From Fistulifera solaris (Eukaryota): a DNA stretch of 64,000 nucleotides. The DNA is taken from positions 620,001-684,000 of the forward strand of contig AP026146.1 in assembly GCA_030295235.1 (NCBI GenBank), given 5' to 3'. Positions within the stretch are counted from its first letter, which is position 1. Each line of letters opens with the position of its first letter. The notes beneath the pieces were generated by a model, which saw nothing but the letters and a program-made list of their open reading frames with translations, searched no databases and was not told the DNA's origin. The translations under genes were made by a program, and so were the position numbers. Positions 193 to 39,757 of this stretch are shown here, one piece after another.

Positions 193-1844
193 TTATTCTT
201 CCATGGCGTCCTCGGCTAAGTTTTCGCACTCGTCCACCAATTGCCTCGAAGTAAGAGCGTTCCTGTATTGTCCAGGAAGCAATTCCAACAAAAGATAAGA
301 TAGATGCGCCTCGATTTGTGCAGCACGTCGTGCTTCCGAATTAGGAGGAGCTCCACGAGCCAACGCTTGCCACACCTCAGGAACAGCAAGGTTGTCACTC
401 GTGACGGCCGCTTCGATCATCTGTCGAAGCTCGTTATCTTCTACAGCGTTACTCCGTAGCCCGCGACGAGCAGCCAGTAGATACCGAGCTTTTGTCCGAC
501 TACTGGTGTATTCCAGCTCTCGTCGTTTTATGCGTCGCAATAGCTCACGCAGGCGATACCCGAGCAAAGATGGCACGGCGCACTCCATATCAAATTGCCA
601 AGGTAGCATTTCCTCTCCATCCCCCATTTTCTTTAGCAGGATATAAGTAATCTTAAGAGGATAAGGCTTGGTGACTTTGACAATGACTTGCTTTTGCAAT
701 AAGGTCGTTTGCAGCTGTGAAAAGGAAAGCGCTCCAAACCCAGTACCTCTTGCAGTACACTGTCCGCAACAACTATGGACTTGTTGTCCGGGTCCATCAA
801 GTTCTTGTCGTTGATATAAACATAAAAAGCCATGATGATTTGTGACATGGTCAACGTAGGAGGAGGGAAATGAAGCTCATTGTCAAGAGGCGGCAGTGGA
901 TTGCCATCGGCCGTCCGATCCTCTCCTTTGCGTTTCTGCTGCTTGGGTGTAACAGGAGTACTATCTGTGCCACTCGTCGCGCCATCTTTCTCAATTGCCT
1001 CCTCATCCACGTCTTGCTCTGGAGTACCATGATGTGGAAACATATGGTTCACCAATAGCGGATGCCGAATGGTGTACCGATCGTTCATGTTGTATCCTTC
1101 CGTGGAGACAATATCCGCATGACTTGAAGGATGCATTTGAATTTGCGCCACGACGGAATGAATCTCCAAATCTGTATCGGGAGGAGTGGGTGGACGATAC
1201 TTGACACACCACGCATGGGAATCATCCGACATGTCTCGTGTCCAGCGCATTTCTTGTTTCTCGGAAAGAAAACAAGTTCGCAAATCGATTTGCGATGGAT
1301 CCGTTAATTTGGGTGTCGTATCTCCTCCAGTCGAGCGTCTAGATGATGTCTTCTTCTTGGGCTGTTGTATAGCGGCCGTGACTGGATTCTTGGGTCGGAA
1401 GACGGTTTGCAACTCAACCACTAGCGATTCCATGAAATGAGTAAACATGTACGCTGGTATAGGCTGATCTTCTTCTTTCTCTCCTCCTTTTGAACGATCG
1501 AGGTCATCTTTCGGAATTCCTCCGTACCCCGTCTCTTGGTCGAATTGAGAGGCACTCTTGTGATCTAAATGCCCAATCAATAAAACTCCCTCCAACTGCA
1601 ATTTAAAATGCTCCGGAATGCCTTGCAAGTAATCCGCTTTCGCATACTGATGCGAAATCCACAACCGCAAATGAGACTGTCGGGTAGGACTCGTTTTCTC
1701 TAACAGATTTGAAATACGGCGTCGTGTTTTGACGGCTCTTGCTTCAATACGACTTTCTAAGTCATCCATTCGTTTCATTTGCGCGGTGAAGGCGGTCCAG
1801 ACTTCCGAAATCGGTGAATCATTCATAGCGATTGCGTCCCTCAT
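193..1844 (-). CDS. SWIB/MDM2-domain SWI/SNF subunit (BAF60/SMARCD/SWP73-like), split by a frameshift near 715
   Basis: ORFs 633-1844 and 193-699 join. SWIB-like segment 'FYVYINDKNLMDPDNKSIVVADSVLQEVLGLERFPF' and N-terminal 'LRLWISH...FKLQLEG' resemble BAF60 family. Confidence 0.65.
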
Positions 1845-30999: not shown

Positions 31000-32817
31000 A
31001 TGAACAGATCCTACGCCTTCATGATTCGCTCTCGATCGAAAGCGTCGTCGTTGTCGTCGTTCTTCTTTTCGACTTTGGTGAAAGGACGCGGCTCGCTTTT
31101 TTCCGCACGTGACGACTTCTCATCATCATCGTCGCTATTATTTGTCGTCTTTGATTCCTCCACATCATCTAGCACCACCGTTACTGGATGACACAGATAT
31201 TACACAAACGCAGTCCTTCAAAGATTCGGTGCAACACGTGCAAGCACAAGTCGAACTATTCAATCAACGCTACCAGCTTGTTCGTCAAGGTGGAGGTGCT
31301 GCGGCCGTGCAGCGTCATCAGGAACGGAACAAGCGATTACCACGGGAGCGCATAGATCTCTTGGTCGATCCGGGTACACCCGTACTCGAATTGTCGCCGT
31401 TGGCGGGTACCGATTGGTCCGAAGGGACGGCTACCACGAAACACCACATTCCGTCGGGAGGGATTGTCACGGCCATCGGGATCGTCTCGGGGACGCCTTG
31501 CATGATTGTGGCAAACGATGCCACGGTCAAAGGAGGGACCTATTTCCCAATCACCGTCAAGAAACACTTGCGCGCGCAAGAAATCGCTATGCAGAACAAA
31601 TTGCCCTGCATTTATTTAGTCGACTCCGGTGGTGCCTTTTTGCCGCAACAGGATCAAGTCTTCCCCGATCGTGATCATTTTGGTCGTATATTCTACCATC
31701 AGAGTATCATGAGTGCACAGAACATTCCCCAAATTGCTGCGGTCTGTGGGAGTTGCACTGCGGGAGGTGCGTACGTTCCGAGTCTGTGTGATGAAACCAT
31801 CATGGTACGGGGCAATGGAACCGTCTTTCTCGGTGGACCACCGTTGGTGCGGGCAGCGACGGGAGAAGTCGTTACAGCACAAGATTTGGGAGGAGCGGAC
31901 GTTCATGCGACTCGATCGGGTGTTACGGATCATATTGTGAATACCGAAGAAGAGGCCATGGCGAAATTACGACAAATTGTTTCGTTCTTGGGACCGCAGC
32001 AACGAATGCTGCAGCCGACTTTGTCATCGTCGTTCGAAGAACCACTCTACAATGTCCAAGAACTGGAAGGCTTGGTGCCGACCGACTCGACGAAGCAACC
32101 CATGGACGCTCGTAAGATTCTCGCACGAATTTTGGATGGTAGTCGCTTTCATGAATTCAAAAAGAGTATGGAACCACACTCGTGACTGGCTTTGGTAAAA
32201 TAATGGGACAAGATCTGGGCATCATTGCCAACAACGGTATTTTGTTCTCGGAAAGCTCCTTGAAAGGAGCACATTTTGTACAACTCTGTTGTCAACGAGG
32301 TATTCCGATTTTGTTCTTGCAAAATATTACCGGTTTCATGGTGGGACAGAAATACGAACATGAAGGCATTGCCAAACACGGCGCCAAATTGGTGTCGGCA
32401 GTTTCCAATGCCACTGTCCCCAAAATCACGCTAATTGTCGCAGGTAGCTTCGGTGCCGGAAATTATGGCATGTGCGGACGCGCGTTTAGTCCTCGTTTCT
32501 TGTTCATGTGGCCCACCGCTCGAATTGGTGTCATGGGTGGTGCGCAAGCCGCGAAAGTGTTGTCTACGGTCCAACGCGACAACAAGGAACGCAATGGTGA
32601 AACATGGACGGAAGAGGAAGAAAAAGCATTCGAACAGCCCATTTTGGATCAGTTCGAAAAGCAGAGTTCCGCTTATTATTCCACACGGCATTTGTGGGAC
32701 GACGGAATCATTGCACCGGCGGAAACGCGTATTGTTTTGGGAAATGCTTTGGCCATTGCCCGACGAGTTGGATGCGATCCACCCAATGCTACACAGTTTG
32801 GTGTTTTCCGCATGTAG
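31000..32817 (+). CDS. MCCB: 3-methylcrotonyl-CoA carboxylase beta subunit (mitochondrial)
   Basis: '[11 protein letters not shown]', 'VDSGGAFLP', '[11 protein letters not shown]', '[12 protein letters not shown]', C-terminal 'FGVFRM'. Indels at ~31100 and in the A-run at ~32160. Confidence 0.95.
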
Positions 32818-36817: not shown

Positions 36818-37958
36818 TTGAGAGAAGAAGACTATCATAAGTTGTGACTAGTCCAACTGCAACACATATACGTCTTTTGATACAGGATACTTCAAGGTTT
36901 GCTCTGTACTTTCTATCGTGGTGGATTGTGTGATGTTTTCAATGCTTGTGGACTCGTGGACGAGAAAACCCATGGCACACAAGATGCTAACCTCCGGTGA
37001 ATCCCATGGAAAATGATGCTGATGATTTTGGGCATAGTTGACTCACGTTAAGTGTCTTGCCGGAGAATCGCTAGATTTTATGAGAGCTCCGTCAATGGTG
37101 CAACTTTTAGCAAAACGAGCAAGCGGGGCTATTTATCATGAACTCGATATTTTCAAGGATGAGATACGAGAGTCTTCATTGGGGCTGCAACTTCCAGCCA
37201 AAGCCGTCATTTCGGTGCAGTCATCACGTAAGTTTGCTCGTCGGTACTTTGTTTTTTCAAACCACTGCATGCATTAACCGTAGCCTAATCTCTAGCCTCT
37301 TGCGGATATTATTTGACGCAACCATTCTTTTAGGGTGCCCACCGCGTGATCCTAGAGCTAGTTCTTTCGTTGTAAATTTTGCGAGTTCATCAGTCCTGGG
37401 ACTGTACACTCTGATTGACCATGGAGTATGGCTGAACAACTTTTTGCGTCATCGTTGTATGTGGTTGTTCTGGTTTCCTTTGCGTTCGCCACGGTTGCGG
37501 TTGCGGGACCCGCTCATAGTGCACTCGCTGTGTCCCACCTAGCGGAAGTCGGCGGCATTTGGTTGCCCTCATCGGGTCGTTTTCAGTACCAGTACACTAA
37601 ACGCTAGTGTGAAGGAGTCATGGATGGAGGTCACGCGATACGGTGTGTCCTTGCAAGACAGAAATAGTGCATTCCGTCTCGGATCGCGCATCACATGCCG
37701 AGACATCTTCAATTGTTACAAGTTGAATGAACCCATAACATAATGCAAGGCAAAGCTAGGTTGACATCTGGCCTCCCCTGGCAAATTATCTTCAGATTCA
37801 GAAAGCTACTGTCGATCGTGCGTGATTTGCGCGATGCGCGTTCTAGTTTGAGGAAACTGTGAGCCGATGTTTGTTTCCAGTTTTCTGCGAACCTGCCAAT
37901 CGTTTCATAAAGCGAACAAGAACAAAAACAAAAGGTTGTATCACACACAAGCGACAAA

Positions 37959-39576
37959 ATGATGTTCCGCAATCTTGTTTTCCTTGCTTCGGTCGGCGCG
38001 GCCTCTTCGATGGATGTCTATACCGCAATGATCATGCCTCTTTCCAGCAACTATACAGCTGAAGGAACAATGGTGGTGATGGTCGAAGAGGGAAGCACCT
38101 CTATCTTCTACGGAGGCCATGTGATGGGTTTGGAATCTTCTTTGGACGCGACGATGTGCACAGCAATGAACGGTTGTGGGTAAGCAGGCTCTCGTTCATA
38201 CATACTTTTCACAGTCAACAATGGAATCACTCTAACACATTTGAAGTCTTCACATTCATGTGGGTATGTCATGTGAGAGCGTCGAAACTCAGGGCGGTCA
38301 CCTTTACGAGACAGATGAGGACCCGTGGTTGGAAGCGCGTCACTCTACGACTGCAGATGGTGTGCTCATTGAGGGCACTTGGCTCGAGATCGGCACTAAC
38401 GAAGTTAACGGTAGAGTTGTGATCGGTACGTGTCCATGATATCATTTATTTTGCCACATAACTCGCAATGACTAACAATAATTAATCAATTTACATCTGA
38501 AGTTCACAATGAGGCTGGAGAAAGAGCTGGATGCGGTATCTTGCAACCTGTCATGGAAAGTATGACTCAACTGTCGGCTATGACAAGTCCCCTCGGAGAC
38601 GATAGCATGGCCGAAGCGGAAACCTTTGTTGCGGGGGGATGATATGTTCTTGTGCTATGCTGGGGTGGCCCGTGGACTCGAGGCAAATGTCATGAGTTTC
38701 ATGAGTGAAGGCGGCATGGATTGTAATGTCGCCAACGGCTGTGGCACCCATATGCATCAAGGCACATCGTGCGAGAACCTCGATACTCAGGGTGGACACT
38801 GGTACGAAACGGAGGAAGACCCTTGGTTGATGGAGGGCTATCTTTCTACCACAGCGGATGGCATGGCTTACTTTGGAAATTGCCTTATGGTTGGGTCTGC
38901 TACATCCATGGCTGAAGGCAGACCTTTTATTGTTCATGATTCGATGGGGAACCGTGTCAGCTGCGGTATCCTGGAAGCACGGGATGCGATGGGCGAAGCT
39001 CCTTCTCCGTCGATCGGAATGGAACCTACGATGATGCAGCCTTCTATGATGGACCCGACCGTGATGCAACCTTCCATGATGAACCCGACCATGATGGATC
39101 CCACGATGATGGACCCTACCATGATGGATCCAACGATGATGCAGCCTTCTATGATGGACCCGACCATGATGGATCCCACGATGATGCAGCCTTCTATGAT
39201 GGACCCTACCATGATGGATCCCACGATGATGCAGCCTTCTATGATGGACCCTACCATGATGGATCCCACGATGATGCAGCCTTCTATGATGGACCCTACC
39301 ATGATGGATCCCACGATGATGCAGCCTTCTATGATGGACCCGACCATGATGGATCCCACGATGATGCAGCCTTCTATGAAGGACCCGACCATGATGGATC
39401 CTACGATGATGCAGCCTTCTATGATGGACCCGACCATGATGGATCCTACGATGATGCAGCCTTCTATGATGGACCCTACCATGACGGACCCTACCATGGG
39501 ATCCTCTTCTTCGTCTTGGCTCTCTACATTGCTCCAAACCATGGTGCTTCTCATTGTCGTTGTTGTCTACATTTAA
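37959..39576 (+). CDS. Secreted/GPI-anchored tandem Cu-only SOD-like protein with Met-rich repeat stalk
   Basis: Signal peptide. Introns 38180-38246 and 38426-38502. Domain 1 'GLHIHVGMSC..QGGHLY..VIVHN..ERAGCG'; domain 2 'GTHMHQGTSC..QGGHWY..FIVHD..NRVSCG'. G-run indel ~38635. Hydrophobic C-terminus after GSSSSS. Confidence 0.8.
39031..39495 (+). repeat. Coding tandem repeat: 31 x 15 nt (MMDPT/MMQPS), higher-order 45-nt unit
   Basis: Read directly from the sequence. Confidence 0.97.
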
Positions 39577-39757
39577 GAGTATTTTGAACTGGTTAACATT
39601 GGACTGGAATAACAATCACGAATACATACAATCTAGAGATAGTTTCGTTCAAGAAGAAGAGACGACAGAAATCGACTCGGTCCTCAAGAGAATACGTTAA
39701 CTTCGAAAAACAGGTATCACATCGAAGCGGGTATACACACACCCAGAAATAGTAGCG

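Follow-up and report, generated by a model that had tools for sequence, protein, structure and literature searches.

Within a 64,000-nt window of the genome of the pennate diatom Fistulifera solaris (order Naviculales; contig AP026146.1, positions 620,001 to 684,000), we identified a three-exon gene on the forward strand (37959-39576) encoding a 490-aa protein in which two tandem domains with the predicted fold of a Cu,Zn superoxide dismutase (SOD) are followed by a long stalk of methionine-rich pentapeptides and a hydrophobic tail. The gene is intact, transcribed and spliced. Judged from alignments, both domains are of the Cu-only type: the copper ligands, the active-site Arg and the disulfide are kept, and the zinc segment and most of the electrostatic loop are gone. 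We are highly confident in the structure and expression of the gene, the fold and retained ligands of its domains, the family assignment and the Met enrichment, taken jointly. The complete interpretation, that of a Cu-only SOD displayed at the cell surface, is in our judgment evenly poised between right and wrong.

Fold and homology of the two domains

Structural models for the two domains were taken from AlphaFold2 (AF2) predictions for two closely matching database proteins: P0016, the public protein model of this gene, and P0002, which is best read, from its sequence, as the second (homeologous) gene copy of F. solaris. The score pLDDT, a prediction of the local distance difference test, is 93-98 over about residues 21-150 of P0016, which cover domain 1, and 70-94 across domain 2 of P0002. 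In VIA structure comparisons, domain 1 matched the tomato Cu,Zn SOD 3s0p_A with Z 14.5 and a root-mean-square deviation (rmsd) of 2.2 (117 residues aligned of 124), and domain 2 matched human SOD1 3h2p_A with Z 13.9 and rmsd 2.3 (118 aligned of 126). Z was at least 8 for 255 of the 998 chains compared with domain 1 and for 265 of 997 with domain 2, and the best 50 entries for each domain were all SODs or the SOD chaperone CCS. SOD5 chains were not among these best 50 for either domain, which still leaves room for closeness to SOD5. A Foldseek search with domain 2 of P0002 yielded 178 matches at E≤0.001, and the top matches listed were all Cu,Zn SOD or CCS; all 30 of the ESM Atlas matches fell in the Sod_Cu set. 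Metal-free or loop-disordered SOD1 chains, in which only 123-127 residues are present, make up many of the top structural matches, which fits a domain without the Zn loop and the electrostatic loop (loop VII). Both domains, as modeled, have the Cu,Zn SOD fold, the eight-stranded Greek-key beta-barrel of SOD1.

Profile searches point in the same direction. With a profile built from 32 two-domain sequences, all 29 PDB chains at E≤1 were SOD or CCS (best E-values 6.6e-4 and 4.7e-3), SOD5 chains matching only at E 0.17; with an earlier profile of 15 sequences, 9 of 11 chains were SOD, CCS or YojM (best E 0.062). A phmmer search of the downstream open reading frame (ORF) against the PDB gave nothing meaningful, the best match being a glyoxalase at E 0.72. 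The Pfam profile Sod_Cu was found below threshold in 7 of 13 relatives (best 21.8 bits, E 2.7e-4), and its gathering cut-off of 28.9 bits was reached by no sequence tested. The original prediction, made from the DNA letters alone, had looked to this profile and to a structural model for its confirmation; the profile produced no match at the gathering score, and the models returned an SOD fold for both domains.

Active site and Cu-only features

Each domain has the motifs HxH, GGH, VH and R-x-x-C-G as well as the upstream Cys. The corresponding positions are H76, H78, C83, H92, H135, R141 and C144 in domain 1 (disulfide pair C83-C144) and H216, H218, C223, H232, H278, R284 and C287 in domain 2 (disulfide pair C223-C287). 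In hidden Markov model (HMM) alignments to the SOD 7b4o, the HxH, Cys, GGH, VH and R..CG elements fall on their SOD equivalents. The same alignments place the His- and Asp-bearing segment that follows GGH in the SOD as an insertion relative to the diatom gene's family, and in 7b4o the stretch from the last His to the Arg is longer by 11 residues.

We extended this comparison to 554 domains from 165 family proteins, called with a purpose-built family HMM. The ligand His, the Arg and the disulfide Cys are kept in 86-99% of non-gap cells: 491/512, 501/515, 499/521 and 520/537 for the four His, 513/517 and 530/533 for the two Cys, and 460/534 for the Arg, which is replaced by Lys in 47 domains. 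A DPW motif is similarly well conserved (D 508/527, P 482/527, W 521/526). The spacing from the last His to the Arg is 5 residues in 299 of 373 domains, so that loop VII is short, and that from the GGH His to the DPW Asp is 6-9 residues in 383 of 422. In the F. solaris protein this stretch after GGH contains a single His, H106 of domain 1, where 420 of 524 domains have Tyr. Owing to the cut loop VII, the copper site would be open, as we infer from the alignments. Only 6% of domains have an acidic residue at the third position ahead of the DPW Asp, so that at most one half of the E110/D113 signature of Cu-only SODs can be recognized. The presence of the copper ligands, catalytic Arg and disulfide Cys in each domain, and the loss of the zinc site, had both been claimed from the sequence originally, and both are borne out by these alignments, which show no Zn-ligand segment and only 5 residues left of the electrostatic loop.

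Two further sets of cysteines were noted. An additional Cys pair, spaced six apart, lies just before HxH in each domain (C67/C73, 38157-38177; C207/C213, 38722-38742) and is at least 90% conserved in the family alignment A2. A third pair, of a kind typical of domain 2, is formed by C184 (38653-38655) and C260 (38881-38883). These added pairs are probably extra, family-specific disulfides.

Gene structure and transcription

RNA evidence was drawn from contigs of four runs of one study (X1 to X4), in which most of the stretch is represented; it covers none of the metagenome runs X5-X7, whose share is 0.08-0.12. In X1, X3 and X4 the contigs omit exactly the 67 and 77 nt of the two proposed introns, and depth in the intron 2 bin 38431-38489 is 0 in these three runs (20.4 in X2); these contigs therefore represent spliced RNA. 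In X2 the introns are covered and unspliced. A 984-nt spliced contig of X1 extends over 37926-39054 and enters the repeat, which starts at 39016, by about 38 nt, and shorter contigs cover parts of the repeat as well as 39455-39628, which contains the last units, the tail, the stop and 3' untranslated region (UTR). The transcript start at 37926 is a lower bound, as coverage reaches at least that far.

In the assembly, the reading frame is broken within exon 3 by a run of six G. One G is omitted at 38633 in all four runs, and X2 holds an additional copy, about 94% alike with 7-9 substitutions per 130-150 nt, in which one G is omitted at 38637. Since the run has 5 G in four of four runs, the frameshift in the window is an assembly homopolymer error. 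The gene itself is intact, encoding 490 aa up to a single terminal stop when read with 5 G. P0016 and P0002 are both in frame across the G run. Published abstracts describe F. solaris as allodiploid, and P0002 is 94% identical to our product over domain 2. The two introns and the G-run correction had been proposed before any RNA was consulted, and the contigs agree with both: exactly these introns are skipped in three of the four runs, and the reads support the shorter run in all four. Just after 39642, in the 3' UTR, a contig in each of the four runs departs from the window into unlike sequence, for which the second gene copy, a polymorphism or a further difference in assembly could account.

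The public model P0016 is named a "hypothetical protein" of Fistulifera solaris in one source and, automatically, an SOD copper/zinc-binding-domain protein in another. It equals the spliced product over all of the first 206 residues (206/206) and continues for 41 residues in another frame. The frame jump occurs after residue 206, and the model stops at 38915 (window 38640-38915). The RNA contig is unbroken where P0016 needs an extra splice, and the public model is therefore truncated, with the stalk, the anchor tail and the bulk of domain 2 missing. The coordinates of the gene and of its product are given in Table 1.

Table 1. Features of the F. solaris gene and its predicted product, in window coordinates.
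Feature	Residues	Position	Strand	Basis and remarks
5' UTR		37926..37958	+	X1 contig record 1 begins at 37926; ATG at 37959
Exon 1, coding part		37959..38179	+	GT donor at 38180; joint in X1, X3 and X4 contigs
Intron 1 (67 nt, GT..AG)		38180..38246	+	Skipped in contigs of 3/4 runs; unspliced coverage in X2
Exon 2, domain 1 core (HxH, Cys, GGH, DPW)		38247..38425	+	Translation, RNA contigs
Intron 2 (77 nt, GT..AG)		38426..38502	+	Skipped in contigs of 3/4 runs
Exon 3		38503..39576	+	Ends at TAA 39574-39576; X1 contig unbroken over 38502-39054 save for the extra G
6-G run, frame-breaking		38633..38638	+	Reads have 5 G; leads to TGA in the window; downstream frame open to 39576
Signal peptide-like segment	1-17	37959..38009	+	Hydrophobic core, small residues before likely cleavage site
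SOD-like domain 1	18-148	38010..38546	+	Across both introns; family HMM E 4.1e-38
SOD-like domain 2	153-293	38559..38982	+	Family HMM E 7.7e-60
Short Ser/Pro linker	294-304		+	Translation
Met-rich stalk	305-465	39016..39498	+	32 pentapeptide units plus one Met
GSSSSS, candidate glycosylphosphatidylinositol (GPI) attachment region	466-471	39499..39516	+	Translation
Hydrophobic tail, 19 aa, GPI-signal-like	472-490	39517..39573	+	Hydropathy; ends the protein

Protein architecture and predicted surface location

The order of elements originally predicted, namely a signal peptide, two SOD-like domains, a Met-Met stalk and a GPI-like tail, is what the spliced product reads. Mean Kyte-Doolittle hydropathy is 1.56 over residues 5-16, 2.26 over the last 19 residues and 3.47 over the last 11, and the AF2 model of P0002 has a predicted terminal helix at the position of the tail. 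Aligned with each other, the two domains share 43% identity over 140 residues (E 4e-32), and about 4 residues separate their envelopes (148 to 153). The counterpart of GSSSSS is kept as GSSS in the relatives P0003, P0004 and P0006, and hydrophobic ends occur in 51 of the 130 family members with tails of at least 15 aa. These features indicate that the protein is probably secreted and GPI-anchored, and we consider a location on the outer cell surface to be likely.

The wider family

An exhaustive search with domain 2 retrieved 1,154 representatives at E≤0.001, with 526 at E≤1e-10 and 102 at E≤1e-30. The 165 proteins of the family analysis comprise the best 150 of the 1,154 representatives, a set of 21 relatives (some of them in both groups) and the product supported by the reads. 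A two-domain form is the commonest, with 68 of 165 proteins; 14 proteins have one domain, 28 have three, 23 have four, 7 have five, 10 have six, 6 have seven and 5 have eight, and there is one protein each with 9, 12, 14 and 16. The sources of the family are marine microbial-eukaryote transcriptomes, EukProt, metagenomes and two named diatoms; the 10 clusters looked up came from MMETSP, EukProt, JGI, Logan and ENA with hardly a name, so the taxonomic range is only partly known.

Several family members form long arrays: P0023 (2040 aa) has 14 domains, P0027 (2656 aa) has 16, and P0028 (1136 aa) has 8. Those with 14 and 16 domains exceed the 12 repeats that are the largest number given for an animal protein of this kind in the consulted text of a review (PMC13017621). 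A word-index search for proteins longer than 545 aa returned none at E≤0.001 among 64 candidates, which is a weak negative, as long arrays did turn up in the exhaustive search.

P/T/S-rich stalks of at least 15 aa, without Met, occur in 25 of the 130 tailed family members. Within the set of 165, a stalk with a Met content of 10% or more is found only in the protein described here, P0002, P0003-P0006, P0049 and, marginally, P0129. The original prediction did not recognize the architecture as one already described; the two-domain form is the modal one, and the gene already bears an automatic SOD-like name. The long Met stalk occurs only in this species' copies.

The methionine-rich stalk and Met-rich domains

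Tandem Repeats Finder reported a repeat with a period of 45, 9.5 copies, 94% matches and a score of 707 at 39062-39488. At the protein level we counted 32 units of the form xx[DQEN]P[TS], of which 18 are MMDPT, 9 are MMQPS and 5 are variants, with 28 exact MM units. Thus the repeat that had been read from the DNA is present, with 32 units instead of the 31 first given, and the estimate of about 60 Met within it compares with 61 counted. Those 61 Met are among 162 stalk residues (38%), and of the 64 Met positions in the units 61 are intact. The stalk is probably disordered, because pLDDT is 46-59 over the equivalent repeat of P0002. Pfam matches to Extensin_1 and Keratin_B2 on the repeat of the window pieces were rejected as low-complexity, compositional matches.

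The 45-bp DNA units differ from their consensus by 0-3 bases and are thus near-identical, so the long array looks young. Its length also varies: this copy has 32 units, P0002 has 20 (39 Met in 101 residues), and P0003-P0006 have 2-3 Met-bearing units followed by the conserved small-residue run and the tail. A long Met stalk is confined to two gene copies of F. solaris; P0003-P0006, at 74-82% identity, nonetheless carry 4-8 Met in their last 60 residues.

Met enrichment is not restricted to the stalk. Domain 2 contains 9.2% Met and domain 1 6.7%, and the domain values for P0003, P0004 and P0006 are 10.5-12.9%. For the family as a whole the median is 1.4% and the 95th percentile 4.2%, and the Fistulifera clade supplies each of the five highest values among 467 domains. 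At 13 positions of domain 2, Met is found in four or five of the five clade sequences, and elsewhere in the family these positions mostly hold polar or small residues such as T, D, E, S or A. The window's 27 other ORFs with 250 aa or more, some of them surely non-coding, have a median Met content of 2.6% and a maximum of 4.5%. The extension of Met enrichment into the folded domains of the clade provides new sequence evidence for a Met-specific role.

Queried by itself, the repeat returned 7 proteins (171-545 aa) at E≤0.001 among 1,114 candidates. MMDPT/MMQPS-type repeats are also found in the unrelated proteins P0175, P0176 and P0178-P0180, which include a Cys-rich protein of the PLAC8 family (P0175) and a protein resembling a type II secretion pseudopilin.

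Proposed function and alternative explanations

We propose that the gene encodes a double Cu-only SOD-type protein that would be anchored at the cell surface on a disordered Met stalk. Open-site Cu-only SODs are described, in the consulted text of a review, as extracellular enzymes that bind copper more weakly than Cu,Zn SODs and work near the diffusion limit, and as arriving at the surface metal-free to be loaded by extracellular copper (PMC13017621). By analogy with the fungal Cu-only SODs, the diatom protein may likewise reach the surface without metal and acquire its copper outside the cell. We tentatively suggest a role for the methionines: the roughly 85 thioethers of the stalk and domain surfaces could act as a low-affinity, dynamic collector of Cu(I) beside the open sites, with buffering of oxidants as a possible secondary benefit. 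The Cu(I) could be made locally as superoxide or surface reductases reduce Cu(II). Diatoms are reported to produce extracellular superoxide (PMC6697786, PMC4812844, as far as their consulted text goes), and Met-rich domains are described in the portion consulted of PMC11840665 as weak, multivalent and dynamic Cu(I) sponges.

A broader version of this proposal is that tandem Cu-only SODs are not an opisthokont invention, that diatoms and other marine protists have their own large radiation of surface proteins, with 1-16 domains, that resemble the animal proteins built of Cu-only SOD repeats (CSRPs), and that in one member of the Fistulifera clade the whole ectodomain, both stalk and barrel surfaces, is a Cu(I)-harvesting antenna. 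Such an antenna would let an apo ecto-SOD load its open sites from copper-poor water, by way of Cu(I) generated from the very superoxide that it consumes. We regard this version as doubtful.

A number of points weigh against the proposal of a surface Cu-only SOD with a copper-collecting stalk. Concerning the domains, a search with Pfam Sod_Cu (PF00080) at E≤10 gave no match for four window pieces, P0016 or P0002, and the E-values of the profile searches against the PDB are modest. That the four copper His share one metal is inferred from alignment, predicted fold and homology, and the Glu of the E110/D113 signature is not evident. Concerning the stalk, its spacing is MM-x-x-x-MM and not the MxxM/MxM of Ctr1; the consulted text of PMC11840665 indicates that Asp and Ser do not help Cu(I) binding and that a tris-Met site is weak (log beta ~8.2). 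The Thr and Ser residues of the stalk may be glycosylated, and the repeat looks recent, varies in length and seems free of constraint on it. Concerning the RNA evidence, the whole repeat is spanned by no single contig of the four runs, as expected for short-word contigs, and the contigs carry no expression level.

The main rival explanation keeps the SOD-like surface enzyme but takes the methionines as incidental: the stalk would be a disordered and probably O-glycosylated spacer that holds the domains off the membrane, and its Met-containing 15/45-bp unit would have been expanded by slippage or unequal exchange. The near-identity of the 45-bp units (0-3 differences, 94% matches), the 32 versus 20 units of the two gene copies and the presence of only 2-3 units in relatives all speak for this explanation, as do the Met-free P/T/S-rich stalks in 25 of the 130 tailed family members and the similar MMxP(T/S/G) repeats of unrelated proteins. 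However, an incidental origin in the stalk does not sit easily with folded domains that are the five most Met-rich of 467, with conserved Met where other family members have polar residues, with the already Met-rich short stalks of relatives that are 74-82% identical, or with the intactness of 61 of 64 unit Met positions. We consider this explanation unlikely, though a serious contender.

Two lesser alternatives assign the methionines or the domains another task. Met is a protein antioxidant, and we know of no system that repairs oxidized Met outside the cell. The Met residues might serve as a sacrificial sink that is oxidized to sulfoxide by H2O2 or by other oxidants arising at the cell surface and thereby shields the His of the copper site and nearby surface molecules. 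Their presence both on the domain surfaces and in the stalk would suit such a sink, as would the fact that H2O2 is the enzyme's own product, the extracellular superoxide reported for diatoms (PMC6697786, PMC4812844), and the tolerance of oxidation in Met-rich domains, where other Met can substitute, according to the consulted text of PMC11840665. Lacking any known extracellular repair, however, the sink would be single-use, and about 85 Met per molecule is a small capacity relative to a continuous flux; as a primary role it seems improbable to us.

PLAC8 proteins are related to metal handling, and the PLAC8-family protein P0175 shares the MMDPT-type repeat. This bears on the other lesser alternative, in which copper is bound by the domains but dismutation is not their primary task, and His sites and stalk would jointly serve surface copper capture, buffering, hand-over to a transporter or sensing. 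It also draws on the open site and low copper affinity of the Cu-only class (PMC13017621, consulted text), on the resemblance of the stalk to Cu(I)-binding transporter ectodomains (PMC11840665, likewise), and on the Glu of the catalytic-support signature, which is not evident. Against it stand the active-site Arg in 460 of 534 domains (Lys in 47) and the retention of the full set of SOD catalytic positions, and we would rate it a long shot. Lastly, the notion that the locus is a pseudogene or an assembly artefact, which the frame-breaking six-G run leading to a TGA and the ending of P0016 in an unrelated frame might suggest, can be set aside almost entirely, since 5 G in four of four runs give one 490-aa frame, the gene is covered by spliced RNA contigs, the second gene copy is in frame and all conserved family positions are intact in both domains; its frameshift component is already refuted.

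Should the proposal of a surface Cu-only SOD hold, its implications would reach beyond this gene. Phytoplankton, including diatoms, release extracellular superoxide, the regulation and purpose of which are called mysterious in published abstracts, and a family of surface SODs would be an obvious missing control element. [quoted passage not shown] If true, the antenna reading would link extracellular superoxide, copper acquisition and SOD activity in one molecule.

Neighboring sequences and overlapping frames

No further copy of the domain was found in the 64,000-nt window, and no functional link to the neighboring genes (a carboxyl transferase, a ClpB-like piece and others) was seen. Residues 2-278 and 276-478 of the Carboxyl_trans profile are matched by two overlapping forward-strand ORFs in different frames, 31082-32185 and 32155-32817 (31082-32817 together), which suggests a short intron or another assembly homopolymer frameshift. 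Long open frames also lie over the Met repeat at 38578-39615 (-), 38934-39566 (-) and 38940-39587 (+). They are a by-product of the stop-free 15-bp period and not separate genes.

Comparison with known systems

In the consulted text of the 2026 review by Peterson and Culotta (PMC13017621), open-site Cu-only SODs are assigned to fungi and oomycetes only, CSRPs are placed in animals and in Capsaspora and close unicellular relatives, and the class is said to have arisen in opisthokonts. The words diatom, alga and stramenopile have 0 occurrences in this review, and its Table S1 includes no diatom or stramenopile. An earlier paper, in the part consulted, states that CSRPs were so far known only in animals (PMC7730656). 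A full-text literature search combining Cu-only SOD and diatom gave nothing on the topic by title, although an earlier mention elsewhere is possible, and a search by the gene's locus tag gave no paper. The tandem Cu-only SOD architecture is common in databases and, in the literature searched, undescribed outside opisthokonts and oomycetes. The Met-saturated ectodomain, on the sequences compared, is clade-specific.

The Cu,Zn SODs (SOD1/SodC, PF00080) provide the best structural matches, with whole-domain Z of 13.9-14.5, and their copper-ligand, Arg and disulfide positions align with those of the diatom domains. The diatom domains differ in having no zinc ligands beyond the bridging His and an electrostatic loop of 5 residues, and their sequences score below the Pfam threshold.

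The fungal and oomycete enzymes of the Candida albicans SOD5 type share with the diatom protein the SOD beta-barrel, the four copper His, the Arg and the disulfide, together with the absence of the Zn-ligand segment, a truncated electrostatic loop and, probably, an open site. A signal peptide and a GPI-like C-terminus, recognized here as sequence features, are a further likeness. Unlike the diatom protein, however, SOD5-type enzymes have one domain per chain. The remnant of the Zn loop is even shorter in the diatom gene's family (6-9 residues from the GGH His to the DPW Asp), and the diatom protein has no evident E110-type Glu and does have a conserved Cys pair before HxH. The lineage is also different, and the profile match to SOD5 is weak (E 0.17).

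The CSRPs of animals, found also in Capsaspora and choanoflagellates, resemble the diatom protein in their tandem Cu-only SOD-like domains joined by very short linkers (5-9 residues in CSRPs; PMC13017621, consulted text) and in a GPI-like and, for the diatom protein, probably extracellular character, and the wider family of the diatom gene also has long arrays, of up to 16 domains. The original prediction described CSRPs as four-domain proteins, which does not agree with the consulted text of the review: they have 4-12 repeats, mostly six, the first one or two being without a copper site (PMC13017621). The diatom protein differs in having two repeats, both with the full ligand set, and in a host lineage outside the opisthokonts; the likeness is one of shared features. 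A Met-rich stalk of CSRPs is not mentioned in PMC13017621, where the word "methionine" has 0 occurrences.

The closest counterparts of the stalk are the Mets motifs of Ctr1 and the Met-rich domain of CueO, which are likewise dense, flexible and extracytoplasmic clusters of Met. Low-affinity, dynamic, multi-Met binding of Cu(I) is described for those segments in the consulted text of PMC11840665, and the stalk is likened to them by its sequence. In contrast to them, the diatom stalk has a far higher Met density (38%), a strict pentapeptide period and no His in the repeat.

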